Of a DNA stretch of 64,000 nucleotides, positions 2,771 to 45,459 are shown piece after piece (the stretch's first letter is position 1; each line of letters opens with the position of its first letter). The translations under genes and the position numbers were made by a program. The notes beneath the pieces are model-generated. The model saw nothing but the letters and a program-made list of their open reading frames with translations, had not been told where the DNA came from and made no database searches. Source of the stretch: an uncultured candidate division WWE3 bacterium (GTDB lineage: Bacteria; Patescibacteriota; WWE3; UBA101185; UBA10185); NCBI GenBank assembly GCA_903879985.1, contig CAIRNR010000007.1, positions 649,925 to 713,924 on the forward strand, in the 5' to 3' direction.

Positions 2771-4909
2771 ATGTTATTGTCCGCTGAATTACCAACCGAA
2801 GAATTTACTCCGGAAATACCTTTAGAACAACAGCTATGGCCCGAGGCAATAGAATCCCCCAAAATTAAATTAGATATACCAGAAAATACGGCAACTGATT
2901 TTGCACCCCCTCAAGTAAGTGTTATTTCCGATGAACACATCTCAAATGAGCTAAACATAGACTTAAATATTGATAGGGAATCGTTTTCTCAGGCAAACCA
3001 TGCTTTTCAGAGATTATCCGCAACATATCCATCGGGCATTAAAGTTGGTTTTTCCAACGACTTAGATATTGAGGATATTCCTAAAAGAGACATACGCGAT
3101 TTGGGCGTTATTTTGGATACATGGAACAACGCGAACGAAACTTACTTTTACTTGGACTCTCGTCCTCATCAGTATTTTTACTCGCCAATAAAGGAACAAT
3201 GGGATGACTTAGCAGTTGAGCAGAAAGCACATTTGCGTACAGTTTTAGGTGTTAACTTCGATACACTAGCACAAGATTTCTTTTCTGGTAGTGGAGATGT
3301 ACCCGACGGTATAAGAACCTTACAAGAATTAATTAAAAACCCAGATTTCCAGGAAAAGGAAAACTTAACTAACTATCTGATGCAAGAAGGTTGGTTAGCA
3401 AAAAGAAATTTCTTTAGATCCAACCCAAACGAGGATGAAAACACATATTCGCGGTCACGCTATAGTTACGAATATACAAAATTCGAAATAAATCAACTCT
3501 TATGCTCAGCTGCAGTCGATCTTGCTGAACAAGGAAATAGCGCTCAGTTGGGTACCATATTAGAACATTTTGCTTTCTCAAGAGTACCTTCAGATTCCCG
3601 ATTCAATTTAGGTGATTTTCCAAGTCCTTACGAAGATGCTACAAGCGTATTACTAGACGAAAATCTTTCTTCGGACGGAAGAAGGGTAGTGTTGAAAGAA
3701 TTCGTAAAGGTCTTTGGGCCAATTAGCACTGTTGATACTTTGTCTAACAAGATACATGCTTTAAGTCGTACTGGTAACAATAAAGAAGAATCATATATCA
3801 AAGATTTAATTAACCTTTATTCCTTGATTGAAGGTGAAAATGTTTTAGCACCTATGGAAAAGTTGACTAATGTTTATGACGTTGTTGATTATGCCGCTCT
3901 AGATAGACCTGAACTTACAGCTAAAGAAGCAACAAGATTGGAAGCAGTTGCTAGGTTATTTGCTGAAGGTGCTGAGTACAGTACTGTTGACGGGCATGTA
4001 GTAAAATTTGCTTCCACAGCTCCAGCCAAGGAACAAACAGAAGTAGTAATACTGGACACAGGTGCAGGCAATGCCCGCGTTTCCCGAGAACTTTTTATAC
4101 GTGGCTATAAAAATTGTTCGGCATTAGAATACGACCCAAAAAATATACGTTATGCATTGGAAAAGCGTCCCAGTGAGGATTTTGGGATACTCCGTGGTAG
4201 TTGGCATAACATACCCCTTGCTACGGCTGATTACACAAATATGAATAAAGCTATTGATGTTTGTTTCACTACAGAGAGGTCTTTTTTACATGATCGTACT
4301 GCGGCGGAATGGTTTGGTTTATTTGATGAATTTAGGAGGGTTTCCCATTACAGAGCAATGCTTTATATGGATTTACCCGATATTAATTCCGGTGTTTATA
4401 AAGAACGCGATGATGCTTTTAGAACTAATTTGCGTGAAAATTTAGATATAACCGATAAAGAGAGTCATATTATTTTTGATGGCCCCGGCAAAGTAAAATT
4501 TAATAGGATGGCTATATCAGAAGAGCAATTAGCTATTTATTGTCGACTATTTGGTCTTGTTCAAATTAATAGAGAGGTAGATCCAAGACCTGACGAGGAT
4601 ATGACCGACCTTTATTTCACACTGGCAAAAGATCAAAACTGGCTTTCCGGAGACATCTCCAGAGAGGAGTTATGGAATTCCATGGCAAAGTTAGGTATGT
4701 TCGATTTCGATGTAGATTACAACATGTTTGTGGAATCTTGGGGCATGACAATAGGACAAGCGCTATTGTTTGGTTTGGATACAACAGGTTCTCTCCATAG
4801 TTCTCCATACCTAGAGGATTTGTTCAAAAAGCGAAAAGGTCCAGCGGTTTGGGTTGATAACAAAGGCGGCAGATTGAACTTGAGGTCTGAATGGCCATCT
4901 TATGAATGA
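2771..4909 (+). CDS. large hypothetical protein (712 aa) with an internal class I SAM-dependent methyltransferase-like fold
   Basis: Glycine-rich motif I 'VVILDTGAGNA' lies at about nt 4044-4076. It is followed by an acidic beta2 end ('ALEYD') and 'AIDVCFTTERSFLH' (motif II/III-like). No known family could be assigned to the N- and C-terminal regions. Confidence 0.5.
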   Translation: MLLSAELPTEEFTPEIPLEQQLWPEAIESPKIKLDIPENTATDFAPPQVSVISDEHISNELNIDLNIDRESFSQANHAFQRLSATYPSGIKVGFSNDLDIEDIPKRDIRDLGVILDTWNNANETYFYLDSRPHQYFYSPIKEQWDDLAVEQKAHLRTVLGVNFDTLAQDFFSGSGDVPDGIRTLQELIKNPDFQEKENLTNYLMQEGWLAKRNFFRSNPNEDENTYSRSRYSYEYTKFEINQLLCSAAVDLAEQGNSAQLGTILEHFAFSRVPSDSRFNLGDFPSPYEDATSVLLDENLSSDGRRVVLKEFVKVFGPISTVDTLSNKIHALSRTGNNKEESYIKDLINLYSLIEGENVLAPMEKLTNVYDVVDYAALDRPELTAKEATRLEAVARLFAEGAEYSTVDGHVVKFASTAPAKEQTEVVILDTGAGNARVSRELFIRGYKNCSALEYDPKNIRYALEKRPSEDFGILRGSWHNIPLATADYTNMNKAIDVCFTTERSFLHDRTAAEWFGLFDEFRRVSHYRAMLYMDLPDINSGVYKERDDAFRTNLRENLDITDKESHIIFDGPGKVKFNRMAISEEQLAIYCRLFGLVQINREVDPRPDEDMTDLYFTLAKDQNWLSGDISREELWNSMAKLGMFDFDVDYNMFVESWGMTIGQALLFGLDTTGSLHSSPYLEDLFKKRKGPAVWVDNKGGRLNLRSEWPSYE

Positions 4910-5679
4910 TTGGTTTTAGTATAATCGTCTGCTTTTTCCCAAGCCAAAGTAAACATTGCTCTCATTGTATTGGCAATAAGGTCGTTTTGAACTATAATTC
5001 CCACTAAGTCGCCATCTTTGTGAAAGTTAATGAATGCGACTTTACTGCTATAAATGTCTACTTCAATACCAATAGGGAACTTCTCTTTTGGTACAACTCT
5101 TGTTTCACGCTTTTCCTTTTCATTTTTACTGATATATGTTTTGGTTTTTGCGTCCTCTGCAACGATAACTTTAGCCCAAATGTTAGCCACAGCTCTTTCC
5201 TTTCCATATGTGTGCGAAAGCCATTCATACACCTTTGGATCAACCTCTGATGTTTGTAGAATCGCCCAAATCTCTTTACCCTCTTTAAGAGTGTCGTTGT
5301 AGACCTCTTTAATGCCATTGATTCCTTCATATATCTTCACACCGGGTTTATTATCAGTTGTTTTGAATGCCGTAATTAGCTGGGGTAGGTAAGTCTGCAG
5401 AGTTAGTTGGTGGTTTTGAGCTTCTTTTAACTGTTCCTCTACGAGTTCTGAAAGTTTGTAAGGATGTTCGGCACGGAAGTGAAGCTTCTTTTTAATTTTT
5501 AATTGAGAGGCAAGTCCTTTATTTTGAAGATCATACAGAGTTTTATAAACAATTCCTCTTTTCAATCCAGATTTTTTAATAATATCTAAGACTGGCAAAA
5601 TGCCCTGTTCGAGCAAGATGTCATAAACAATTGCTTCTTTATCTTTTAGCCCTGATTCTTTGAGAGTTTTTGAATACAT
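4900..5679 (-). CDS. TrmB-like winged-helix transcriptional regulator
   Basis: N-terminal wHTH 'EAIVYDILLEQGILPVLDIIKKSGLKRGIVYKTLYDLQNKGL' followed by a ~180 aa C-terminal domain. This resembles TrmB-family regulators. Confidence 0.5.
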   Translation of the reverse strand: MYSKTLKESGLKDKEAIVYDILLEQGILPVLDIIKKSGLKRGIVYKTLYDLQNKGLASQLKIKKKLHFRAEHPYKLSELVEEQLKEAQNHQLTLQTYLPQLITAFKTTDNKPGVKIYEGINGIKEVYNDTLKEGKEIWAILQTSEVDPKVYEWLSHTYGKERAVANIWAKVIVAEDAKTKTYISKNEKEKRETRVVPKEKFPIGIEVDIYSSKVAFINFHKDGDLVGIIVQNDLIANTMRAMFTLAWEKADDYTKTNHS

Positions 5680-5739
5680 AACTAATATAAACGTAGCAAA
5701 GTTCTAATACTGTGTCAACATGTTAATTGTCAAAACAAT

Positions 5740-5768
5740 TTGACGTATCCTGTAACCCGTAGTAATAT
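5740..5768 (+). promoter_or_regulatory. sigma70-like promoter (TTGACG-17-TAATAT)
   Basis: Hexamers read directly, with a 17-nt spacer. It sits upstream of a second, stronger promoter. Confidence 0.35.
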
Positions 5769-5828
5769 GTGTTAAGTAAAAAAAGGGAAATACCCCTGAG
5801 TGCTCGCAGGAAATGTTATCAAAGTGAC

Positions 5829-5857
5829 TTGACAGGACATGAACTATAGGGTACAAT
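5829..5857 (+). promoter_or_regulatory. near-consensus sigma70 promoter (TTGACA-17-TACAAT)
   Basis: TTGACA at 5829-5834, a 17-nt spacer, and TACAAT at 5852-5857. No ORF lies downstream before the terminator at ~6043. Confidence 0.5.
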
Positions 5858-5863
5858 GGTTTT

Positions 5864-6043
5864 AGAAGGTTGAAGCAGAGTACATTCAAAACTAAATATA
5901 GAAACCGTTTATTTAAGGAGAGAACCTAACGTCTCAAGCCTAATAGAATAAATATAGTGCAATTAAAAAGGCCGAGATTTGGTGAGAAGCTATAAAGCGT
6001 AATGCTGTAGCGTATTTTCCTCAGATCTCGGCTTTATTTTTTT
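5864..6043 (+). ncRNA. candidate small non-coding RNA (~180 nt), family unknown
   Basis: Bounded by the consensus promoter at 5829-5857 and an intrinsic terminator (GCCGAGAT ... ATCTCGGC plus a T-run). It has no ORF or RBS and lies in a 730-bp non-coding gap. Confidence 0.3.
5964..6043 (+). terminator. intrinsic terminator with a long loop (possibly a structured RNA 3' domain)
   Basis: An A-run precedes GCCGAGAT (5970-5977). This pairs with ATCTCGGC (6023-6030), followed by TTTATTTTTTT. Confidence 0.45.
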
Positions 6044-6407
6044 CCTCATATTGTTCTTAGCCAGAAACCTACCTGTAAGGTACGGAAATACTGTTAATAC
6101 CCAAATCGGAAGCAATATGCTGTCCAACAAAAAGGGAGAGAGTTTAACAGGGTCTACCGACCATTACAGATAGATTTTTGCCTATGACAAAGTGTGTCAA
6201 GACAATTAGAAGGAGAGTACGTTGAAAATCGAATACTAATTATCAGAATTTTAGATTTTGACAACAGGGGAGTGAAGCATGTTTTGGATTAAGCCTTAGC
6301 GTGTTTTTCTCCCTGAGTTGTGGCTCCGTAGCAGCTTTTAACTTGCAGTTAGTATTTGCGGGTTTGAGGGTTGGTATGGGAAGTAATCAATATAGAAATG
6401 AAACCAA

Positions 6408-6812
6408 ATGAAAAAGGAGAGTGTTATGTTAGTAAAACAGATAAAAACAAGAAATGCCCATGTTGCAAGCGTTCAGACGTGGGGCGGGGGTTTGAGGGAA
6501 AACGACGACGACTGCTATGAAGCAGCTTTTTTCCCGAATTCTATCTCCGCGGTTATCGGGCTGGTTGAAGAGAGGGACACCTGGTTAATTAGTCAATTTA
6601 AGGTTAAACCAGGTGAAATTTTTTACCAAGGAGTGTGGTGTGATGACGATAGGGTCGGGGGTTGTATTTCCGATGATCGTAATGGAAAAAAGCCTTTCAT
6701 GGACCAGGCACCTGCACCAAATAATTATTTTGGTAATTGGGAGTGTGTCATAGCCGGAAACAATAATTCCGACTTTTCACAATTACCACCAGTTTCACAG
6801 TTTTTTTCATAA
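6408..6812 (+). CDS. hypothetical protein A (134 aa), first gene of a higher-GC accessory block
   Basis: RBS AAAGGAGAG precedes the ATG. Cys/Trp-rich and Gly/Asp-rich sequence with no family assigned. Followed by a conserved hairpin. Confidence 0.45.
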   Translation: MKKESVMLVKQIKTRNAHVASVQTWGGGLRENDDDCYEAAFFPNSISAVIGLVEERDTWLISQFKVKPGEIFYQGVWCDDDRVGGCISDDRNGKKPFMDQAPAPNNYFGNWECVIAGNNNSDFSQLPPVSQFFS

Positions 6813-6989
6813 TCTTTATTTAACAAGGAGGTACTTGGAAGCTTAACAGCGCCAATTACCTCCTAAGTTCTTTCATTAATATTGAATTCCCCGATGTTGT
6901 TCTAAGAACATAGAGCTATTACGGGAAATTTAAATGAAAGTTAACCTTGTCCAAGATTAGGGCATTGTATTAAAAAAGGAGAAACATAA
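6813..6989 (+). repeat. repeat module copy 1: terminator-like hairpin plus ~125-bp conserved leader with a palindrome
   Basis: The hairpin AGGAGGTAcTTGG-13nt-CCAAtTACCTCCT lies at 6826-6864. The leader that follows is near-identical to 8396-8566 and contains the TGTTCTaAGAACA inverted repeat plus RBS AAGGAG. Confidence 0.7.
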
Positions 6990-7592
6990 ATGAAAGCAAC
7001 AATAAGTTCTAAATTGTTTGCGGCTTTGGAAGCAACGGTTCGGGAAGTAGAAGTTCCTGTTGCTGATTTGCTTCGTGACCTGAAAGCGTTTACCGTTACT
7101 AAGGTGGCTGGAACAGACGTGGAACAAGCTCTGGTGTATGTCCTGAATCAGGAGGAAGGTTTTACTAATCTTTCGAAGGATTTTGTAGACGCTACCTTTC
7201 TTATGAGCTGGCCTGCGATAAAAGATGGAACAATATTTGTTAAGGATGAATTCGAAATACCTGAATTTGGTCCTGTTGTAAGGCATGTAAGTATTTCCAA
7301 CCTATATATAGGAGGAAAGTTTGATAATGGTCAGGCAAAAGAATTGGCTCAAGCGGTATATACGGTAATCCAATACGCTTGGATACGAAGTCATCCAAGG
7401 GATGATATGCCTCAAATAACTCCAATTTGGGAGCTGAACCTCCGAGGATTTCTCTTTCGAGAAAATGTCGTCCGGGGTGGAAGTGGATCACGCGAAGTCG
7501 CATTTGTGCTGACCGAAGAAATGGCTTTGATAAACGCTGCGGCCGAAGCTTGTAAAAAACTGGACCCTAGGCTCGCGCTTTGGACTTTTTGA
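6990..7592 (+). CDS. hypothetical protein B1 (200 aa), paralog of 8567..9205
   Basis: Shares the motifs 'VLNQEEG', 'WPAI' and 'W-I-R/K-S/T-HPR' with B2 at roughly 35% identity. Its leader is identical to that of B2. Confidence 0.55.
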   Translation: MKATISSKLFAALEATVREVEVPVADLLRDLKAFTVTKVAGTDVEQALVYVLNQEEGFTNLSKDFVDATFLMSWPAIKDGTIFVKDEFEIPEFGPVVRHVSISNLYIGGKFDNGQAKELAQAVYTVIQYAWIRSHPRDDMPQITPIWELNLRGFLFRENVVRGGSGSREVAFVLTEEMALINAAAEACKKLDPRLALWTF

Positions 7593-7663
7593 ACTAATAA
7601 ATTCTAAACTGCTATAAAAACCAAAATATTCTATAAACAAAATGATGTAAGGAGATAAATATA

Positions 7664-8395
7664 ATGTCAGGAAACATTTGGACTCTATTTGATGATGGAC
7701 AGCGGAGGATTGAATTTCAAAGTCTCCCTTTTGGCGCCAAAATAACCGCTTTCAATGATAAACCGGTTTTGGCCGAAGATGTTATTGTTTATGAGATTCC
7801 GTCTCAGGAGGATGGTATTCTTTCTAGGTTGGGAATTGTGATCATGCCCGCAGAGCTTCCAATGCACGCCTACGTAGTAGCGCATGCTTATGAAATGGGC
7901 GTTGTACGTACCTGCCTTTATTGGAATTGGTTCGAAGGTATGGAAGTTATCAAAGGACTTTTTGCATCCATTGGTAAAGAAATGTCTATACTACCTGTTA
8001 CTCCAATGTCCTTGCCCGATCCTAATAAGGAATTGCCACTTAGCTATGTGACAACGTTGGGAGAAGGTATTACCAAGAAGGATACGGTATCATCCGCGGA
8101 TGCCTTTTGGTGGAGGACGCCTTCTTACCCATCTTCCGTGTGGAGCTTGAAAACTTTCGAGCTGCTGGGTTTAACTGGTACTGACCAAGAAATTATGGCT
8201 ACCCTAGAGCCGCACGACGGTGGTTGGAACTCACCTTTAGGTCAATTTGTTTCAGTAGTGGGGGACCTGTTATATGATTTTGAGCACGGTCACCTAAATG
8301 GCTATTGCACGTTGCACCTTGATTTACAGCAGCCGCTTCTTATTGAAGAATGCCGTCTCTTGATTAAGGAACTGCGAGAAGAGCTATATAAATAA
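7664..8395 (+). CDS. hypothetical protein C (243 aa)
   Basis: RBS AAGGAGA precedes the ATG. Starts 71 nt after B1 with no intervening hairpin, so it is likely co-transcribed. No family assigned. Confidence 0.5.
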   Translation: MSGNIWTLFDDGQRRIEFQSLPFGAKITAFNDKPVLAEDVIVYEIPSQEDGILSRLGIVIMPAELPMHAYVVAHAYEMGVVRTCLYWNWFEGMEVIKGLFASIGKEMSILPVTPMSLPDPNKELPLSYVTTLGEGITKKDTVSSADAFWWRTPSYPSSVWSLKTFELLGLTGTDQEIMATLEPHDGGWNSPLGQFVSVVGDLLYDFEHGHLNGYCTLHLDLQQPLLIEECRLLIKELREELYK

Positions 8396-8566
8396 TTTTT
8401 ATCTAACAGGGAGGTACTTGGAAGCTTAACAGCACCAATTACCTCCTTAGTTCTTTAATATTGAATTCCCCGATGTTGTTCTAAGAACATAGAGCTATTA
8501 CGGGAAATTTAAATGAAAGTTAACCTTGTCCAAGATTAGGGCATTGTATTAAAAAGGAGAGGAATT
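8396..8566 (+). repeat. repeat module copy 2 (hairpin plus conserved leader)
   Basis: Hairpin at 8409-8447. The leader is near-identical to copy 1 over about 120 nt, including the TGTTCTaAGAACA palindrome. Confidence 0.7.
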
Positions 8567-9205
8567 ATGTCAGGATTAATTAGCAAGGGATTAAAAAAGG
8601 CGCTTAAGGAAACGCGGATTGAGTATAAAGTTCCTATCAGAGACCTAATGCATAACCCGAAAGGATTTACAGTAAACACAATGCCTTACGATGGTGAAGC
8701 CATGGCATATTGCGATGTATTGGTATTAAACCAGGAAGAAGGACTAGCTGCTTTTCCCATTGACTCCGAATTTAAGCGAGGCTTTCCGGGCGCTGATGTA
8801 CTTTTTGATTTCTTTATGAATTGGCCGGCAATCGTGGCCACAAAGGAAATCGTTGTGGTTGATTCGTTTATCGCAACAGATGACGATATTATTAGGCGGA
8901 ATATCTTCTTTTCGTCTCCATACATAGAGTCGTGGTATGACGGATGTGAACAAGAACCGGAGTATGTGCGTCCCCGAGAAATAGTCAAAGAAGTTAATGC
9001 CTTCATACGCAATACTTGGATAAAGACGCATCCTCGCAAAACTCCTAATGTTATGCCCATATACGACAGGCAAACCATTATGGCGTTGATTTCCAACGAT
9101 ATTATTGAAGGTGAATATTATTCGAGACGTACTGCGTTAGTTCTGCTAAAAGAGTTTCAGGTGATTAAGAGGCTAATTAATACACTCGATCAATTGAAAT
9201 CCTAA
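8567..9205 (+). CDS. hypothetical protein B2 (212 aa), paralog of 6990..7592
   Basis: Carries the same conserved motifs as B1, with the duplicated leader upstream. Confidence 0.55.
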   Translation: MSGLISKGLKKALKETRIEYKVPIRDLMHNPKGFTVNTMPYDGEAMAYCDVLVLNQEEGLAAFPIDSEFKRGFPGADVLFDFFMNWPAIVATKEIVVVDSFIATDDDIIRRNIFFSSPYIESWYDGCEQEPEYVRPREIVKEVNAFIRNTWIKTHPRKTPNVMPIYDRQTIMALISNDIIEGEYYSRRTALVLLKEFQVIKRLINTLDQLKS

Positions 9206-9265
9206 TATAGCAATAGGGAGGTACCTGGAAGCTTTACAGCACCAAATACCTCCTTAGTTCTAACT
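9206..9265 (+). repeat. repeat module copy 3 (hairpin only, degenerate)
   Basis: GGGAGGTAcctggaagctttacagcaccaaaTACCTCCT at 9216-9254. No leader element follows. Confidence 0.55.
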
Positions 9266-9301
9266 ATATGTAGTGCTAGTGCTCAACCATTTTGAGCGCA
9301 G

Positions 9302-9376
9302 AAAAGCCCGAATATTTGTGTGTTAATCGGAAGGTAGGACCGATTAACTTAAACACAACATGTCCGGGCTTTTTTG
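9302..9376 (+). terminator. rho-independent terminator closing the accessory block
   Basis: A long imperfect hairpin AAAAGCCCGaatatttgtgtgtt...aacacaacatgtCCGGGC is followed by TTTTTTGTTTT. Confidence 0.55.
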
Positions 9377-9433
9377 TTTTCACGGCTATTATTAGATATA
9401 GCGGCCGACCAGCTTTGCTGGTAAAATCACCCC

Positions 9434-10546
9434 ATGCTATCAATCGGAATCGTCGGACTACCAAACGTTGGAAAATCCACACTATTTAACGCACTACTTA
9501 AACGCCAAGCTGCACTCGCGGCTAATTATCCTTTTGCCACCATTGAGCCTAATGTTGGTATTGTTGATGTTCCTGATGAGCGTTTACAAACATTAGCTCG
9601 TTTTGTTCAAAATGATTGTGGACGTACTGCGGGAACTAGGGAAGTTCCAGAAAAAATTACACCGGCACTTATTCGTTTTTATGATATTGCCGGACTTGTT
9701 AAGGGTGCTTCTCAAGGAGAAGGTTTAGGAAACGAGTTTTTGGGTCATATACGTGAGTGTGACGCTATTGTTCAGGTTGTGCGTGCATTTACGGATGAGA
9801 ACGTTATTCGTGCTGGTGCTACAGAACCTAAGTCTGATATCGAAATTATAAATACGGAACTTATACTGGCCGATCTACAATCTTTGGACAAGAAGCTTCA
9901 GAACCTTGAAAGAGAATCAAAAGTGGCTAAATCCAAGGACGATATGACAAAGTTAGACATTTACCGCAGATTAAAGGCAACTTTAGACGAAGGTACGTTG
10001 GCTAAAGAAGTTCCACTAACCGAAGATGAAAAATACCTCGTTAAAGATTTAAATTTGCTTACACTCAAGTCTATGATTTATGTTTTGAACGTAGATGAGG
10101 GAAAATCGGGAGAAGAACTTACCCAAAACATAGGCATACCCGCGCAGAATCAACTAAGGATTTCTGCAAAAATTGAGTCAGAATTAGCCGAATTTGAACC
10201 GGAAGAGCGCAAAAGTTACATGGAAGCAGCAGGGATTGAATCAACAGGCTTAGATTTACTTATTAAAAAGGGTTACGAGATTTTGGGACTTGAAACATTC
10301 TTAACCATGGGCCCAAAGGAAGTTCGCGCTTGGACTTATGAAAAAGGATCAAAGGCGCCACAAGCGGCAGGAAAGATACATACTGACTTTGAAAGAGGCT
10401 TTATATCGGCTGAAATTATTAATTATGAAACTCTTTGTTCAGTAGAGAGCTTGAAAAAAGCCAAGGAACAAGGTTTAATACGCTTAGAAGGCAAACAGTA
10501 CACAATGAAAGACGGGGATGTGGTAGAGTTCAACTTTAGTGTATAA
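9434..10546 (+). CDS. ychF: ribosome-binding ATPase YchF (Obg-family GTPase)
   Basis: G1 motif 'GIVGLPNVGKSTLFNAL' and a C-terminal TGS-like domain. Confidence 0.85.
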   Translation: MLSIGIVGLPNVGKSTLFNALLKRQAALAANYPFATIEPNVGIVDVPDERLQTLARFVQNDCGRTAGTREVPEKITPALIRFYDIAGLVKGASQGEGLGNEFLGHIRECDAIVQVVRAFTDENVIRAGATEPKSDIEIINTELILADLQSLDKKLQNLERESKVAKSKDDMTKLDIYRRLKATLDEGTLAKEVPLTEDEKYLVKDLNLLTLKSMIYVLNVDEGKSGEELTQNIGIPAQNQLRISAKIESELAEFEPEERKSYMEAAGIESTGLDLLIKKGYEILGLETFLTMGPKEVRAWTYEKGSKAPQAAGKIHTDFERGFISAEIINYETLCSVESLKKAKEQGLIRLEGKQYTMKDGDVVEFNFSV

Positions 10547-16194: not shown

Positions 16195-16614
16195 TCACTT
16201 GTCGCACGGTACGTCCTTTAATGAGGACTTTACTACCGTTTTTTCGCCAGAGCGCATGTCCGTGTTGTAGTAGAACGTATAGCACTTGTCGATTTTGTCT
16301 TGGTATGAAAGCCATTCTTTCTCATCTTCCACGTTCATGGCATACGAGTAGCTGGAGTCCTTAAAATATACCCAGCGCGATGTTGTTTCATTTGGCATGG
16401 GCAGCTCTCCGAACTTCGACTCGTACGGTTTAGGGGTCCACGTTGTGTCTTGTGTGGCCTTTACCTCGATACCCTTAGGCGATATGATCTTGGTGACCGA
16501 CTGCCAGCCTGGACCAGTTAATTTTGCTCCGGTCTTAGTGCTAGGTAGGCAACCGCTCAAGAGCATGCTAGCCAGGATTACCAAAAGTATATAAATCCGA
16601 AAATTCAGTTTCAT
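16195..16614 (-). CDS. putative lipoprotein
   Basis: Signal peptide with lipobox 'LLSGC'. No family assigned. Confidence 0.5.
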
Positions 16615-39431: not shown

Positions 39432-40448
39432 TTACTTTTGTTGTGCGTTATCCTTTTCAAAAAGGACAGCGACAGCTTTTCGGAACCTATCTTTTTTAAT
39501 TATGATAAAACGTATTAGTAAAGTCAATGGCAAGACTGAAAGCAAAAATGGGAAAAGAGGAAATACCCAAAAAATAATCTCTCTTTGAATTTTTATTTTG
39601 CTGTTCCCTGCTTCTAAATCAAGGTTAAGACGGTATTTTCCCGGAAACATTTTTTTAGTTATTAATGAAATTATTTCTGTCTTTTCAGTTTGAGGTAGAA
39701 CTATTTTTGAAGGAATTTGTTCGTTAAAAATTATTTTTCCCGTAATTAAGTTTGTGATGGTTACGTTTCCTGTCGGAATTATGTGAATATTTCCCGGATT
39801 TTGGAAGGTTACGTTCATTTCGTTTGGGCCGAAGCTCGTAAAATTACTTATTTGCACATTTGTTAGGTTTAATCTTTCGTTTATATCACCGGGGGCGGTT
39901 AAAAAAATCAAAACCCCTACCCTACTCGTTATGTAGGTTTTCTTTCCTTCGTCTGTTGGGTTTTCCGGAGTGACTGGTTGAAAAAAGATTGTACCGTAAT
40001 GGCCACCAGGCTCTGCATTTTCAGGCATATTAATTGTTACAGTAATCTTTTTTGATTCACCTGGGTTAATAATAAAGTCCGCAGGTTCCAGTTTAATCCA
40101 CGAAGACGCGTCGTACATGCTTCGGGCGTTTATAGGAATACTTTCGTCAGCGTAAAAGTTTTTAGCTGATGCCTTTATTGGTAAAGGAAATGGGTTAACG
40201 TTGTATACCAAAATCTCGGCGGTGTTAACTTTTTTTGGCACTAAATTCATTTCGATGATTGCGGGAGAAACTCCAAATGTGACTTGATCTTTTATGTCTT
40301 GGAGTTGCAAGGTTTGGGCGTTTGCTTTTGGCGTATGTGGCAATAGCAATAATACATATGTTGTTATGCCTAAAATTATTGCGACAACCATTGTTTTCTT
40401 ATTCAAAATATTTTTCATCTTAATAAGAAGGCGTGACCGTATAAACAA
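39432..40448 (-). CDS. secreted/anchored surface protein, paralog of 37349..38320
   Basis: 'NAEPGGHYGTIFFQ' and 'IIPTGNVTITN'. C-terminal TM plus tail '...KKDRFRKAVAVLFEKDNAQQK'. Confidence 0.5.
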   Translation of the reverse strand: MFIRSRLLIKMKNILNKKTMVVAIILGITTYVLLLLPHTPKANAQTLQLQDIKDQVTFGVSPAIIEMNLVPKKVNTAEILVYNVNPFPLPIKASAKNFYADESIPINARSMYDASSWIKLEPADFIINPGESKKITVTINMPENAEPGGHYGTIFFQPVTPENPTDEGKKTYITSRVGVLIFLTAPGDINERLNLTNVQISNFTSFGPNEMNVTFQNPGNIHIIPTGNVTITNLITGKIIFNEQIPSKIVLPQTEKTEIISLITKKMFPGKYRLNLDLEAGNSKIKIQREIIFWVFPLFPFLLSVLPLTLLIRFIIIKKDRFRKAVAVLFEKDNAQQK

Positions 40449-43400
40449 TTACAGTTGTGTATGCACCGGTCATTTGAATAGCGTCCGTTTTTACTTGGTA
40501 AGTGATTGTAAAGTTATCGGTTACGGGACTACCGGTTACACCTGTATCATGGTCGGCAACAATATCTCCAGGTGCTGTTGATGAGAAAGGTGCGTAACAT
40601 GCACCACTATTTCCTCCTGGGCATGTGGCACTATTAAACTTATTTGCTCCTTGAATACTTGTGTCCGAAGAATTATAACCGAATCCCCTATCCCCTGTTA
40701 GCCAACCGTCGGGAGCTGCATAAGTTCCTCCATTAAAATCTGGAATTGTATAAATTGGATTTGCTGAAGATGTAAGTGGAGTTGTTTCGTACGCTTTTAT
40801 TACATAGCCGTTGTAGGCGTTGGTGGTTGTAGTTAAGGTTGTGGTTTTAGTATCGTTGAAGCTGTTTGTAGTACCAAGGTTTGAAAAAGTTACAGTTGTT
40901 GGTGACACTGTAAAAGTTAAGGATGGCGCTACAAGTTGGCCATTAGAAGATACTATTGCCGAATTTCCTGCGTTATCTACGGCACGCACGTTAAAGAAAT
41001 ACATCTGTGCGGTTCTAAGTGTAAGACTGGTTGCCGTAACCGACGTGTTTGTTGAGTTTGATGTCCAAGTTAATATATCTGTGCCGCCTGCGGATGATCC
41101 AATGGAGTAATCATAGCGTGATAGTCCAGAAACTGTAGCAACAAAGCCGTCCCAGTTGGCTGATAAACTAGATAGTGAACCATCGTTAAATGCTGCGTCT
41201 ATACCTGCGGCGGTGCCATCATAAACTGTGCCTCCGGTTGGAGCTGTGGAGTCTATTCCAAAGTCGCTGGCACTTTCGGCGTTACCCCCGTAGGCTACCC
41301 ACGAAGAATAAAGTCCTCCAGAATCCTTGGTGCGCGCTTGCCAGTGGTACTCCGTAGCGTCTGTAAGTCCACTTAGCGTTTGGTCTAGGCTTACGCCCGA
41401 ACCTGCAGATGCCGTACCAACAGCATTACAGCTTGTTTCAACATTTGTAAATGGCGTGCCCAAAGGTTGTGCTTCTATACATAGGTAAAGTGTGTCGGGA
41501 TTGTCTGGATCAGAACCTGATGCAGTAAATTTCATAGACGTCGTGTTGTTCCAGCTGCCTGTGGAAATTACCGAGTTAGTTGTGGTTTCCTGAATAAGTG
41601 TTGTTGGCGCGTTTGGTGCTTGGTTTGCTTTTACGAGCGTGGTGGTGCCGGCTAATTCAACGGATGCCGCAGGTTGTGCGTGTCCGTAGTCCAACAGTAT
41701 ATCGGTTGTTGAGTTCATATCGCTTAATTTTATAGTCTCATTGTTTGCAGTATTATTTGTGATATCTAAAACTGTATATACACATGTAGGAGATGAGTTT
41801 ACGGGCATATTTCCCGTTAATGTTGTTTTCTCCGTACCTAAGTATCCAGGATCTCCAAATGTTCCTGGTGTTGAATTAAACAATGTTTCATTTCCGTTGT
41901 AGTTACATGGCGAATCTTGATCATAATAAATATTTACATTAGCCAGCCCTGAACCGGCAACCACAGTTCCTGTGTCAGTTAACTTAATTCTAGTAACGTA
42001 TGCAGATCCTTGATCTAGCGTATATATAAAAGGAGCTCCTATATATGTATTGGTTGAAGGTACGTTTATAGTCGCGACCTGTGATCCTGAAGTTGTGACA
42101 TTGAGTTGTGCGTTATAACGTAAGTAGCGCATGGACATCAAAGCAAAATCAATATCACTAACATTAGGTGCTGATGTAAGTGTACTTATGGATGTTCTTA
42201 CACGCATGTTGCTTATTCCATCAATGGTATCAACATATACTGCAGGTGTTGTTTGAGGTCTGGCGAGTATCCAAGTATCAAACCATGCATACGCGGCTGT
42301 TGCATTTGTATCTGTACCTGGTGTGTTCGCCCATCCTGATGTTCCTTGTACGCCAGAGAAGTCTCTAAGTTGTACATCTTGTGTCATGGCAGTGTTGTTA
42401 GAATGATATTTAATTGCATAGTGCATCGCTGTAATAGACCCGTTCGATGCTACGTTCATTGGAAATGATAAGTTAGAAGATACCGCGTATTCTCCATTTA
42501 CAGTATCGTCATCATTATCAAGCGCATAAAAAGTTGCAGGATATTCTACAACAGCAGTCCTTTGCCATGTTGATGTAGTGGGGTTTACTGTTTTACCCTC
42601 CTTTGTATCTCTGGTGTTACTGCAGTCCGTAGTGGTTCCAGTTCCCCATGAAATTTCGCATTGCGCAGTATTTGTATTTGTCGAACCAGCTATCATATAA
42701 ATACGGTCAAAAACTAGGTTATATTTAGTTCCCGGTCCATTCGTTAAAAATCTTACCGTTACATCTCCTTGTGGGCTAATATAGTCACTAATGTTAAAAC
42801 CACCTATCGTTGTGCCGTTGAATGCGTATGCATACTCAACGTCAGCTGTAGTACCAGTAAAATTAGTACTTAACTGTGTCCAACTTGACGTGGTGTAGTT
42901 TCTTAAATAAACTCCGTATGTTAATGCTACATTAGAAACGTTCATCTCCGGAATAACTACAAAAGTATTCATACCCGGATACGTCTTTACATTGTTAAAG
43001 GTGAACTGCACATCTACCGGCTGTGAACTTGCCGGCATTGGAATTGTTAATCTGTTGTTATCGGAGCCATTTACTCCTGTGGACACGCCTCCAACTAAAT
43101 CAGAGATATAACCTGTCGGTGTACTTCCTGCTGCTATGGTCATGTCTCCAACCTCATAAATTGGATCTACACCAACCTCCACTTGTACGTTATCTAATCT
43201 ATGTTGTGTCGTGGAAGCTACTGTTGAATAAACTCTTAAAAGTAATGATCCTCCTATAACAAAATTAATTAATGGCGTTCGAACAACTGTTCCTGGTACC
43301 GATGTACGTGTTGAAAAATAGCCATCATATACTTCGTAAAGTCTTGCAGTAACCGTTGTATTAACATAATCAACTTTGCGTGGTTGCAATGTTCTCCATC

Positions 43401-45459
43401 CTCCTCCGGTACAGTCAGAATCTGCAGGGGCGTCTACACCTGTGGGGTCTTGCCAGTCGCATATTTGATGCGTGTAAGCGTCTCCAGTTGTAATATCTGA
43501 ATCGGTAATACTAATTAGCAACTTATTAATACCCTGTGGTATATCATAGGTATTTTGATACTGTGTATCTATCCCGTCTACATAAATTAATTTATTTAGT
43601 CCTCCAGGATTTGATCTTGCTGATATCCAATAGTTAGTATCTGCACCAAGTAGCGCTTTCCAGGATCCCGTATTAGTGTTGTCCGTTGCTACCTCAGATC
43701 CGGTGCGTAATATTCCGTTGGTAGGTTGAAAGCCCCTTCTTACGGTGACTTTATTAGGTTCTTCCACCCAACGAATACTCATCATGGCAAAAGCCCAGCT
43801 TCGATTGTTTGTCGCGGTAACGTTTGTACTGGCAGATGTTCTTAAACGCATGTTCATCAGGTTATTACCCGTATCTATAGAATCTTCCGGTGATGTTGTG
43901 ATTTCAGCGTTTACCCAGCTGTCTGTCCAGCCATATACTGTCGCTGAGGCGTTTGTATCTGTTGCAGGAGTACTTACCCAGCCCGATGTTCCTGATAATC
44001 CATAATAGTCACGAATTTGAGGATCAACTGTTTCTGTTGAGATATTAGATCTGTATTTTGCCGCATAAAGTATACCTGTAACGGATATCATGTGGCCAAG
44101 CCCTGTTGTTCTAATGGGAAATGAAATATTTTGAGATGCTGCGTATTCTCCATTATTTGCATCGTCATCATTATCAAGTGAGTAATATGAGCTGGGGTAT
44201 TCTAGTGTGGAACCTGCTTGCCATGTTGACACTGAAGGTGCTACTGTTTTACCCTCTTTTACAGTTGTTGTATTATAGCAATCTGTTGCAGTTCCAGTTC
44301 CCCATGAAATTTCGCATTTCGACGTGTCGGCGTTTACAGATCCCATCATCATATAAATGCGGTCAAATGAAATAGTATACTTTGAGGCGGGCGCATTTGT
44401 TAGAAATCGTATTGATACATTTCCGCTGGCACTTATATAGTCTGAAAGACTAAACCCTGGTATAGCGGTGTCATTAAATGCGTACACATACTCAACATCA
44501 GCAGCAGTTACCGTAAAGTTTGTTCCTCCCAATTGTGTCCACGTAGAGTTTGAATAATTTCTTATATATACGCTGTATGTAAGTGCAACATTTGACACCT
44601 TAATTTCCGGAGAAACTAATATCGTGTTCATTCCCGGGTATGTCTCTACGCCATTAAATGTAAATTGAATGTCTGCTGCATTTCCTGCTGAGGGCATAGG
44701 AATTGTTAATGAGTTATTATCTGATGCGTTTAAGTTGGTCGAAACAGCGCCAACCAAGTCAGAAATATAACCAGTTGGTGTACTACCTGCAGCGATATTA
44801 TAACCCCCTACTTCGTAATTTGGGTCAATGGCAACTTCCAACTGTACCCAGTCAAGTTTATGTAAGGTTGTTGATGCCACAGTGGAATAAACTCTAATCA
44901 TTACTCTGTTGTTTTGTGAAGCGTCTATAAAGTTAGTTAGTGGTGTGCTGACTACTGTTCCCGGTACGGAGGTACGTGTTGAGAAATAACCATCATATAT
45001 TTCGTAAGTTCTGGTTACATCTGCAGTACTTGTATAGTCAACTCTACGTGGTTGTAATGTTCTCCATCCTCCTGTGGTGCAATCGGTGTCGGCTACTGCG
45101 TCCACTCCAGTTGAATCAGACCAGTCGCATATCTGATGTGTAAATGCGTCTGCAGTGGTGGTGTTACTATCATCGATGGTCAATAGAAGTTTGTTAGCTC
45201 CCATTAACGCAACGCCATCAATATAAATAATTTTATTTAATCCTCCAGGATTTGACCTTGCTGTTATCCAATAATTTGAATCGTTTCCTAATGTACCTTT
45301 CCAGTCGCCTGTATTATCGGAACCTGTGGCAATAGGTGTACCCATTCTAAGTGCCCCACCAGTTGGGGGGAATACTGAAGCCGCATAAGTCTTTCCAAAA
45401 GAAAAAGTAATCCAGACCAAACACATGATAATAAAAGATAATATTTTAAATTTACTCAT
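40420..45459 (-). CDS. giant secreted surface protein (1679 aa) with tandem ~545-aa internal duplication, FN3-like region and shared C-terminal module
   Basis: Signal peptide 'MSKFKILSFIIMCLVWITFSFGKTYAAS'. Repeats cover aa 31-578 and 579-1119 at about 60% identity. The 'TEYHWQARTKDSGGLYSSW' segment is FN3-like. The C-terminus is '...TGAYTTVIVYTVTPSY'. Confidence 0.6.
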   Translation of the reverse strand: MSKFKILSFIIMCLVWITFSFGKTYAASVFPPTGGALRMGTPIATGSDNTGDWKGTLGNDSNYWITARSNPGGLNKIIYIDGVALMGANKLLLTIDDSNTTTADAFTHQICDWSDSTGVDAVADTDCTTGGWRTLQPRRVDYTSTADVTRTYEIYDGYFSTRTSVPGTVVSTPLTNFIDASQNNRVMIRVYSTVASTTLHKLDWVQLEVAIDPNYEVGGYNIAAGSTPTGYISDLVGAVSTNLNASDNNSLTIPMPSAGNAADIQFTFNGVETYPGMNTILVSPEIKVSNVALTYSVYIRNYSNSTWTQLGGTNFTVTAADVEYVYAFNDTAIPGFSLSDYISASGNVSIRFLTNAPASKYTISFDRIYMMMGSVNADTSKCEISWGTGTATDCYNTTTVKEGKTVAPSVSTWQAGSTLEYPSSYYSLDNDDDANNGEYAASQNISFPIRTTGLGHMISVTGILYAAKYRSNISTETVDPQIRDYYGLSGTSGWVSTPATDTNASATVYGWTDSWVNAEITTSPEDSIDTGNNLMNMRLRTSASTNVTATNNRSWAFAMMSIRWVEEPNKVTVRRGFQPTNGILRTGSEVATDNTNTGSWKALLGADTNYWISARSNPGGLNKLIYVDGIDTQYQNTYDIPQGINKLLISITDSDITTGDAYTHQICDWQDPTGVDAPADSDCTGGGWRTLQPRKVDYVNTTVTARLYEVYDGYFSTRTSVPGTVVRTPLINFVIGGSLLLRVYSTVASTTQHRLDNVQVEVGVDPIYEVGDMTIAAGSTPTGYISDLVGGVSTGVNGSDNNRLTIPMPASSQPVDVQFTFNNVKTYPGMNTFVVIPEMNVSNVALTYGVYLRNYTTSSWTQLSTNFTGTTADVEYAYAFNGTTIGGFNISDYISPQGDVTVRFLTNGPGTKYNLVFDRIYMIAGSTNTNTAQCEISWGTGTTTDCSNTRDTKEGKTVNPTTSTWQRTAVVEYPATFYALDNDDDTVNGEYAVSSNLSFPMNVASNGSITAMHYAIKYHSNNTAMTQDVQLRDFSGVQGTSGWANTPGTDTNATAAYAWFDTWILARPQTTPAVYVDTIDGISNMRVRTSISTLTSAPNVSDIDFALMSMRYLRYNAQLNVTTSGSQVATINVPSTNTYIGAPFIYTLDQGSAYVTRIKLTDTGTVVAGSGLANVNIYYDQDSPCNYNGNETLFNSTPGTFGDPGYLGTEKTTLTGNMPVNSSPTCVYTVLDITNNTANNETIKLSDMNSTTDILLDYGHAQPAASVELAGTTTLVKANQAPNAPTTLIQETTTNSVISTGSWNNTTSMKFTASGSDPDNPDTLYLCIEAQPLGTPFTNVETSCNAVGTASAGSGVSLDQTLSGLTDATEYHWQARTKDSGGLYSSWVAYGGNAESASDFGIDSTAPTGGTVYDGTAAGIDAAFNDGSLSSLSANWDGFVATVSGLSRYDYSIGSSAGGTDILTWTSNSTNTSVTATSLTLRTAQMYFFNVRAVDNAGNSAIVSSNGQLVAPSLTFTVSPTTVTFSNLGTTNSFNDTKTTTLTTTTNAYNGYVIKAYETTPLTSSANPIYTIPDFNGGTYAAPDGWLTGDRGFGYNSSDTSIQGANKFNSATCPGGNSGACYAPFSSTAPGDIVADHDTGVTGSPVTDNFTITYQVKTDAIQMTGAYTTVIVYTVTPSY
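42103..43725 (-). repeat. intragenic tandem repeat unit 2 of the giant surface protein (approximate bounds)
   Basis: aa 579-1119 'PTNGILRTGS...NPGGLNKLIYVDG...DNDDDTVNGEYA...'. Confidence 0.6.
43726..45369 (-). repeat. intragenic tandem repeat unit 1 of the giant surface protein (approximate bounds)
   Basis: aa 31-578 'PPTGGALRMG...NPGGLNKIIYIDG...DNDDDANNGEYA...' aligns along its whole length to unit 2. Confidence 0.6.

Follow-up and report, generated by a model that had tools for sequence, protein, structure and literature searches.

How do two genes whose protein products have drifted far apart come to share, immediately upstream, a stretch of non-coding DNA that is almost letter for letter the same? 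The question is raised by a 64,000-nt stretch of contig CAIRNR010000007.1 from an uncultured candidate division WWE3 bacterium (hereinafter designated the window), in which a block at ~6408–9383 lies between the gene for a TrmB-like regulator and ychF. The block contains four orphan genes, designated A, B1, C, and B2, and two repeated non-coding elements, a hairpin and a leader, and the order of its units is A, hairpin-leader-B1-C, hairpin-leader-B2, hairpin, terminator. An earlier note, made from the sequence alone, had proposed three origins for the near-identical leader, namely constraint, gene conversion, or cassette capture. The reading that we favor, with a probability of roughly 0.5 for the whole of it, is that a foreign-derived orphan operon occupies a conserved cargo slot, that a hairpin-leader-B unit underwent an old duplication, and that the leader has been homogenised by gene conversion. 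Five relatives (L004–L008), obtained from a scan of species-representative genomes for the TrmB-like protein, serve for comparison; by their record labels they comprise one candidate division WWE3 metagenome-assembled genome (MAG), three Saccharibacteria, and one "bacterium".

B1 and B2 are old paralogs. Their proteins align end to end with an identity of 30% by BLASTP (E value 5e-23, 211 aligned columns) and 33% by MAFFT, so that the strong divergence claimed earlier holds while the figure of ~35% was slightly too high. In direct orientation and with this E value, the two genes qualify as tandem paralogs. The motifs VLNQEEG, WPAI, and WI[RK][ST]HPR are common to both, the third in a form slightly narrower than the W[IK][RK][ST]HPR first described. 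Nucleotide identity in aligned codons is 46%. At conserved residues with degenerate codons, the same codon is used in 16 of 59 cases, compared with 21.5 expected at saturation; judged by these counts, synonymous sites are saturated. Because codon identity is at or below saturation, the duplication of B is old, and divergence to 30–33% with saturated codons indicates that the proteins are under purifying selection.

The leaders in front of these genes are practically indistinguishable. Specifically, the cores at 6876–6982 and 8455–8560 have no mismatches and differ by a single 1-nt gap in a run of A, with 106 of 107 columns identical, which bears out the claim that a leader of ~125 bp is almost the same before B1 and B2. 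The identical tract spans the Shine-Dalgarno site and ends 7 nt before the ATG. The complete hairpin and leader units (6809–6982 and 8392–8560), which form two direct repeats spaced by 1.58 kb, are 94.3% identical over 174 columns. The hairpin part of the unit is 92% identical, with five substitutions and a 4-nt indel, and the difference in substitutions between the hairpin part (5 in 63 nt) and the leader (0 in 106 nt) is significant (Fisher p 0.006). The types of change in the unit are C>T, T>C, A>G, G>A, and A>T, plus indels.

Because the duplication of B is old, the leaders cannot owe their identity to a duplication of recent date. For 106 nt to be perfectly identical, homogenisation or re-copying must have occurred recently; the three origins first proposed were a sensible choice, and with saturated codons on one side and no mismatch in 106 nt on the other, constraint by itself is the one that proves inadequate. 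The mosaic of 0/106 in the leader and 5/63 in the hairpin part fits a conversion tract. Gene conversion would explain the leader identity beyond what selection alone can do, the sharp ends where homology stops, and the mosaic with the 92%-identical hairpin part. Selection probably acts on the leader as well, since the identity ends at the Shine-Dalgarno site and the intercistronic region is strongly structured.

We propose that the hairpin-leader-B unit was duplicated in tandem, probably via unequal recombination between hairpin copies, and that purifying selection accompanied the subsequent divergence of the B copies to ~30% identity. The resulting direct repeats would have been substrates for gene conversion, which would have kept the 107-nt leader, with its Shine-Dalgarno site, identical. 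Concerted evolution by gene conversion is well known from tufA/tufB and the rRNA operons. As in those cases, direct repeats in the window are identical while their neighbors diverge, and identity is mosaic; unlike in those cases, the tract is non-coding and ~107–170 nt long, and the genes have escaped conversion. A homogenised leader before anciently diverged paralogs would be a clean natural example of concerted evolution of non-coding DNA without its genes.

Perfect identity with abrupt ends on both sides could also arise if the identical 106-nt core were a mobile element, small and non-autonomous, that had recently inserted itself upstream of B1 and of B2, and in L005 a repeated leader indeed precedes unrelated genes. 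Such an insertion is nevertheless very improbable. Only two leader copies were found in the 64 kb of the window, at equivalent positions beside a hairpin, each ending at the Shine-Dalgarno site. Terminal inverted matches number 4/20 for the core and 9/20 for the whole unit, no target-site duplication is seen in the flanks, and phage and plasmid DNA records contain no match. For want of terminal inverted repeats (9/20 and 4/20) and of a visible target-site duplication, a miniature inverted-repeat transposable element was rejected as a class. A diversity-generating retroelement was rejected too: neither the four block proteins nor the flanking gene tables show a reverse transcriptase domain, the differences are not confined to adenines, and the repeat lies in non-coding DNA.

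In many metagenome contigs a break falls exactly at the repeat, which might raise the suspicion that it was collapsed or duplicated by an assembler. Independent assemblies from several samples, on contigs of 9.3, 31.7, and 32.4 kb, span the block in the same order with 99.96–100% identity, and the block proteins are indexed on contigs of up to 715 kb. Because several independent assemblies cross the repeat in the same order, an assembly artefact is scarcely credible. Proteins identical to those of the block are encoded on ~20 contigs (up to 715 kb long), which stem from one MAG and several lake metagenomes. Public assemblies often end ~70–130 nt before B1 or B2 or ~90 nt after A, inside the repeat, an example of repeats fragmenting MAGs.

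The hairpin accompanies every unit. Its 37-nt core, GGAGGTACYTGGAAGCTTWACAGCRCCAAWTACCTCC, is found exactly at 6827–6863, 8410–8446, and 9217–9253 and at no other site in the 64 kb; shuffled sequence gave 0 matches, and 0 are expected by chance. Each copy starts 10–13 nt past the stop codon of A, C, or B2, the three genes after which the earlier note had placed it. A perfect Shine-Dalgarno sequence, with GGAGG, lies in one arm (copy 1 reads AAGGAGGU), opposite its complement (ACCUCCU) in the second arm. Predicted folding energies are −19 to −21 kcal/mol (−19.4 to −20.6 kcal/mol), with z −3.9 to −5.7; in this respect the three hairpins have the stable, G+C-rich stem of an intrinsic terminator, as has the hairpin at the right border of the block (−41 kcal/mol).

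One could therefore imagine that the block consists of separate transcription units, in which the hairpin is a terminator and the leader is a promoter with an operator at the DNA level, its identity being due to selection on a protein-binding platform, helped by conversion. The close distance of the hairpin to each unit's stop codon, the 5–7 U in its 12-nt tails, and a small palindrome in the leader, CTTGTCCAAG, are in line with such units, and in L007 a GGAGAGG...CCUCUCC hairpin with a clear U-tract follows the last island gene. On closer inspection the tails are interrupted (AAGUUCUUUCAU and similar), and a terminator scan called none of the three copies, which does not support the plain terminator that the hairpin had been taken for. 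A full canonical terminator lies 46 nt past the third hairpin and would make that hairpin redundant. Neither leader yielded a σ70-like promoter call, and hexamers found by hand are poor at best, although the organism uses near-consensus promoters and canonical U-tract terminators nearby. Finally, a Shine-Dalgarno site within the identical tract points to a feature of the mRNA. We consider separate units unlikely.

Judged by their sequence, hairpin and leader are most likely structured intercistronic RNA. The segment 6813–6992 folds with −50.3 kcal/mol (z −5.3), and the second copy has z −3.6. In minimum-energy folds, a conserved UAGUUCUUU past the hairpin, or a segment just after the upstream stop codon, pairs with the downstream Shine-Dalgarno site. 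In the operon that we favor, transcription would yield a polycistronic mRNA in which the hairpin marks or protects mRNA 3′ ends, or attenuates weakly, and in which the leader, as a structured intercistronic 5′ untranslated region (UTR), subjects B1 and B2 to one and the same translational control. Pairing between the upstream RNA of the slot and the leader (duplexfold) was dropped as a candidate, the duplexes having unrealistically long loops.

Intercistronic stem-loops such as repetitive extragenic palindromic (REP) elements are known to stabilise upstream mRNA, and repeated cis-acting RNA signals are known from λ nut and HK022 put. Like these, the window hairpins lie just past stop codons in a co-directional cluster, and structured RNA is repeated before different genes. 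Unlike them, the window element is confined to one locus in 172 kb (the 64-kb window plus 108 kb of relatives), and there is no sequence or Rfam relationship. A REP element or bacterial interspersed mosaic element was rejected as a class for lack of dispersal, since the 64 kb contain its three local copies only and the 108 kb from relatives a single one, and a known Rfam RNA family for hairpin or leader was rejected for lack of a covariance-model match. With Rfam 15 at gathering thresholds, the 64 kb yield one tRNA only; at E values up to 10, the region 5600–9500 yields two chance matches only.

L004 carries one homolog of the hairpin, cGGGAGGTTAGTGGCAGCTACATACACCATTACCTCCCg (7326–7382, − strand), located between the last cargo gene and the border terminator, ~80 nt short of the latter, a position that matches window copy 3. 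A covariance model built from the three window copies and the L004 copy, R1, gives the latter 63.8 bits (E 7e-16). The four copies score 64–83 bits, and nothing else credible is found in the 172 kb; a sub-threshold match in a further locus, L009 (E 0.019), is a different hairpin. Between window and L004 the basal pair changes from A-U to C-G, which is compensatory, and one G-U pair becomes G-C. Since the hairpin has a homolog in L004, whose YchF is 66% identical, it is older than the split of the two species. By its distribution in these sequences, it is an old element of the right-border frame that multiplied in the window lineage, and the two internal copies are peculiar to the window genome. 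In a metagenome scan with the hairpin pattern, all of the matches listed (35 loci) were unrelated foldback repeats. No counterpart of the leader is detectable in the relatives by nhmmer.

The place that the block occupies is conserved, and its content is not. The TrmB-like regulator gene and ychF remain neighbors in 5/5 relatives. The relatives' genes between them have no relationship to A, B1, C, or B2, nor to one another across species (the contents are listed in Table 1). The GC content of the cargo exceeds that of the rest of the locus by 3.0 points in the window and by 6.9–14.9 points in the five relatives. Unrelated cargo that is GC-richer in every genome (6/6) and lies between conserved flanks is what marks a hotspot of foreign DNA, and the block is indeed accessory, as first supposed. 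In the window, the enrichment is genuine yet modest: the block has 41.0% GC compared with 38.2% for the window, at the 94.6th percentile among equal-sized windows, and relative to 56 ORFs (open reading frames) A, B1, C, and B2 have z-scores of +0.8 to +2.1 for GC and +0.4 to +1.6 for GC at third codon positions (GC3). The block is thus not uniform with its flanks (+3.0 GC points), and of the earlier statement that its GC is clearly higher, the rise stands and the "clearly" does not.

The TrmB-like orthologs in L004–L008 are 84–91% identical, compared with 64–70% for YchF and 50–63% for S6. Their codon identity at conserved residues is only 0.46–0.58. A protein so highly conserved, with diverged codons, speaks for strong purifying selection and not for a transfer of recent date.

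Chromosomal hotspots of horizontal gene transfer are known to hold variable accessory genes between conserved core genes. The slot resembles them in that its flanks are conserved and its content is unrelated and compositionally deviant in each species. It differs from them in two respects. There is no integrase, tRNA, or other mobility gene nearby (in particular, the gene tables for ~10 kb to either side of the window block contain no integrase or transposase), and, unlike ordinary hotspots, the slot comes with a conserved promoter, a structured RNA, and border hairpins of its own. The A-B1-C-B2 operon is probably lineage-specific and horizontally acquired; no relatives were found in viral contigs, phage records, or plasmid records.

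The conserved non-coding frame can be traced on both sides. At the left border, a promoter with 11 of 12 consensus positions points into the slot (Table 1), and its aligned form, ACTTGACA...TAyAAT, is invariant in the window, L004, L005, and L007. It is followed by ~330 nt that are recognised by nhmmer in L005 (E 8e-42), L008 (1e-19), and L007 (2e-5), and partly in L004 (the range extending to 2e-3). This RNA is predicted to contain a terminator-like hairpin at ~5965–6043 and a long imperfect helix (~26 bp) formed by 6054–6085 with 6157–6187. Across four species the structure has 49 pairs, with 92% of pair cells paired, and 14 double-changed pairs, compared with 5.7 ± 1.8 in shuffles (0/500) and 1–5 in slid controls; G-U pairs place the structure on the + strand. 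In L008, a further gene intervenes between the regulator and the conserved RNA, which nevertheless remains on the side of the cargo.

Between the regulator gene and the RNA promoter, TGTCAA/TTGACA half-sites occur at 5715–5760 and 5818–5836 in the window and are conserved in relatives. By their sequence and position they look like candidate operator sites for the TrmB-like regulator.

At the right border, the closing terminator reported earlier at ~9302–9376 is present with slightly wider limits, 9299–9383 (−41 kcal/mol, z −7.5, U-tract). Homologs with the same basal helix, GGUAGGAC, and U-tract are found in L004 (7154–7256), L005 (3824–3902), and L007 (7526–7630). These hairpins of 80–100 nt are unusually long, and in the four species they precede either ychF itself or the last genes in front of it. 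The right-border hairpin might be more than a terminator. With the promoter and structured RNA on the left and the long terminator on the right, the frame recurs in three to four relatives. We envisage, in WWE3-like bacteria of the candidate phyla radiation (CPR), a slot that is bounded on the left by regulator, promoter, and structured RNA and on the right by a terminator before ychF.

Repeated non-coding modules are not restricted to the window. L005 carries two copies of a 68-nt hairpin (5017–5084 and 7256–7323) that are 94% identical and show a compensatory C-G to U-A change in the stem. It also carries two copies of a leader (5405–5508 and 8656–8759) whose ~62-nt core is ~95% identical and which stand before two mutually dissimilar genes. 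Both repeats are restricted to the island within 19.5 kb and are unrelated to the window repeats. From these sequences, cargo in the slot may recurrently include intergenic modules that are structured and repeated, and such modules may be copied as units and not only passed on when genes are duplicated.

Several points weigh against the sequence of events proposed above. L005 shows leaders copied without gene duplication, which weakens a simple history of tandem duplication. Gene conversion is deduced from the pattern of identity, and the recovered contigs are near-clonal (99.96–100% identical in DNA). Operon structure and any function at the RNA level are likewise read from DNA. The minimum-energy folds of the two leader copies differ in the pairing partner of the Shine-Dalgarno site, and centroid structures show neither pairing; the two leaders, being identical, offer no covariation, and no relative carries the leader. 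Of a genome that measures at least 715 kb, 64 kb were scanned for further copies.

Cassette capture, the third origin proposed for the leader, has its own attractions. Imperfect hairpins follow ORFs in the same orientation, the cargo is orphan and GC-shifted, a strong promoter stands at one end beside a divergent gene, the content of the slot is different in every species, and AAC...GTT triplets surround hairpin copies 1 and 2. In such a gene-capture array, the hairpins would be attC-like sites for a recombinase not yet known, and units would be inserted downstream of the slot promoter. Known attC sites measure 57–141 nt and are defined by the boxes R″ (RYYYAAC) and R′ (GTTRRRY). The window element measures 39–47 nt, R′ is absent from 4/4 hairpins (including that of L004), and R″ is present in 2/4, namely copies 1 and 2. 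The gene tables, which extend ~10 kb to either side, list no tyrosine recombinase (PF00589), and the divergent gene encodes the TrmB-like protein. L004 has two cargo genes and one hairpin, and no reordered or excised variants (e.g. lacking B1-C) are found among 17–18 contigs with identical B2 or TrmB. Such an array is improbable. The hairpin as an attC site was rejected on the boxes, the short element, and the lack of a recombinase within ~10 kb, and a role as an integron-type cassette boundary is not supported either.

The comparison with sedentary integron arrays, or attC clusters that lack an integron-integrase (CALINs; PMC4889954), is instructive all the same. With three copies within 2.4 kb on the + strand, the hairpins attain the CALIN density of at least two like-oriented sites within 4 kb after ORFs, and the shared traits include one orientation, mostly orphan ORFs, an imperfect hairpin per unit, and an end promoter by a divergent gene. 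The differences are that the divergent gene of the window is of TrmB type and not IntI, that its hairpins do not match the R′ and R″ boxes of attC, that the hairpin is shorter, that the window also repeats a 107-nt leader, and that there is no sign of cassette movement. In the survey, very small genomes were without integrons (PMC4889954).

What the four proteins do is not suggested by any family. Searches of Pfam, PADLOC, and PHROGs, and sequence searches of the PDB, gave no match for any of the four, and B1, C, and A, each compared with 5.8 billion proteins, retrieved nothing other than themselves, so that the earlier failure to recognise a family is confirmed. When 1.84 billion representatives were searched exhaustively with a B1+B2 profile, the matches were B1, B2, and a single further protein, P0003 (E 6e-12). 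P0003 was rejected as a B homolog because its score is summed over five near-identical repeats and its pairwise E value is 1.1; by our reading it is a eukaryote-type MATH-repeat protein. The B profile also had no match in a collection of genome contigs, and viral contigs scanned with B, C, A, and two cargo proteins of relatives gave none. AlphaFold models of B1 (with B2) and C have a predicted local distance difference test score (pLDDT) of ~35, too poor for a fold search. All four proteins are acidic (isoelectric point 4.6–5.6), and no signal peptides or transmembrane segments are apparent by eye. As described earlier, there are four ORFs, each with a GGAG Shine-Dalgarno site upstream on the + strand, of 134, 200, 243, and 212 aa; the first of these lengths probably needs correction to 128 aa. 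The start of A at 6426 is more likely than that at 6408 because GGAG stands directly upstream of the ATG at 6426, and most public gene calls also place it there.

Two relatives hold recognisable genes at the slot. In L005, a 114-aa gene inside the slot (7556–7900, − strand) matches Csx16 (PADLOC E 1e-5) and, weakly, a Pfam STIV_B116-like model (E 0.015). In L007, a 461-aa gene (6109–7494, − strand) between the border terminator and ychF encodes an AAA-Csx3 fusion (E 7e-39). Csx16 and Csx3/Crn3 are ring nucleases that degrade cyclic tetra-adenylate (cA4; PMC12409355, PMC7371418), and no CRISPR-Cas genes turned up in the examined parts of the two loci. Ring-nuclease-like genes in or beside the same slot give it, by position only, a hint of defence or counter-defence. 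They say nothing direct about A, B1, C, and B2, which are similar neither to these nucleases nor to any PADLOC model.

CPR bacteria have tiny genomes with few recognisable mobile elements, and how they acquire and express genes is poorly understood. The locus described here is a concrete and comparable case, with conserved non-coding borders and, in each species, a different, GC-richer, and mostly orphan fill. Its ingredients are of known kinds (hotspot island, tandem paralogs, concerted evolution), and the unexpected addition is the conserved structured non-coding frame. More speculatively, and with little expectation that it will hold, one may regard the slot as a dedicated, integrase-free platform for capture and expression of foreign genes used in conflict with phages or host cells, among them the ring nucleases of the relatives and the orphan A, B, and C proteins, with the promoter and RNA as entry, the conserved hairpins as exit and as junctions between units, and hairpin-leader units as handles for recombination or expression. 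Were it a true capture platform, or its cargo counter-defence genes, it would offer a new route to gene discovery in uncultured bacteria; otherwise, it is an ordinary orphan island with an unusually tidy repeat.

Table 1. Features of the slot and its flanks in the window, and slot contents in the five relatives.
Feature	Position	Strand	Remarks
TrmB-family winged-helix regulator gene	4900–5679	−	PF01978, E 2.4e-9; left neighbor, transcription points away from the slot
Promoter, near-consensus σ70 type	5829–5857	+	TTGACA-17-TACAAT; 11/12 consensus matches; points into the slot
Conserved structured non-coding RNA or leader	5862–6190	+	No Rfam family
Gene A	6426–6812	+	Orphan, 128 aa (134 aa with start at 6408); GGAG upstream
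Hairpin copy 1	6826–6864	+	R1 covariance model 81.8 bits
Leader copy 1, 5′ UTR of B1	6865–6989	+	Core 6876–6982 identical to copy 2, including Shine-Dalgarno site
Gene B1	6990–7592	+	Orphan, 200 aa; paralog of B2
Gene C	7664–8395	+	Orphan, 243 aa
Hairpin copy 2	8409–8447	+	R1 covariance model 83.3 bits
Leader copy 2, 5′ UTR of B2	8448–8566	+	Core 8455–8560 identical to copy 1
Gene B2	8567–9205	+	Orphan, 212 aa; paralog of B1
Hairpin copy 3, no leader	9216–9254	+	R1 covariance model 76.7 bits; same place as the single L004 hairpin
Long terminator hairpin, right border	9299–9383	+	−41.1 kcal/mol, z −7.5; U-tract UUUUUUGUUUU; apical GGUAGGAC
ychF	9434–10546	+	Conserved right neighbor of the slot
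Slot in L004			Regulator-ychF gap ~2.7 kb; two orphan genes
Slot in L005			Gap ~6.9 kb; six cargo-strand genes and a NUDIX gene on the opposite strand, adjoining ychF
Slot in L006			Gap ~1.2 kb; one gene
Slot in L007			Gap ~4.0 kb; one orphan gene, and the AAA-Csx3 gene beyond the border terminator
Slot in L008			Gap ~3.5 kb; one gene and a homolog of the 712-aa protein encoded upstream in the window

Three further ORFs of the window deserve mention. Upstream of the regulator gene, 2771–4909 (+ strand) encodes a 712-aa protein whose only signal is a weak one of methyltransferase type (E 0.04); its identity is 71% with the L004 protein and 20–26% with those of the other relatives, and its L008 homolog lies between the regulator and the conserved RNA. 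The strongest compositional outlier is a 139-aa ORF at 16195–16614 (− strand) with no Pfam match on record, a GC content of 46.7%, and a GC3 of 59% (z +4.5). Finally, a 1679-aa ORF at 40420–45459 (− strand) contains direct repeats at 42458–45316 with a period of ~1.65 kb and 73–75% identity, and its product looks like a large repeat-domain protein.

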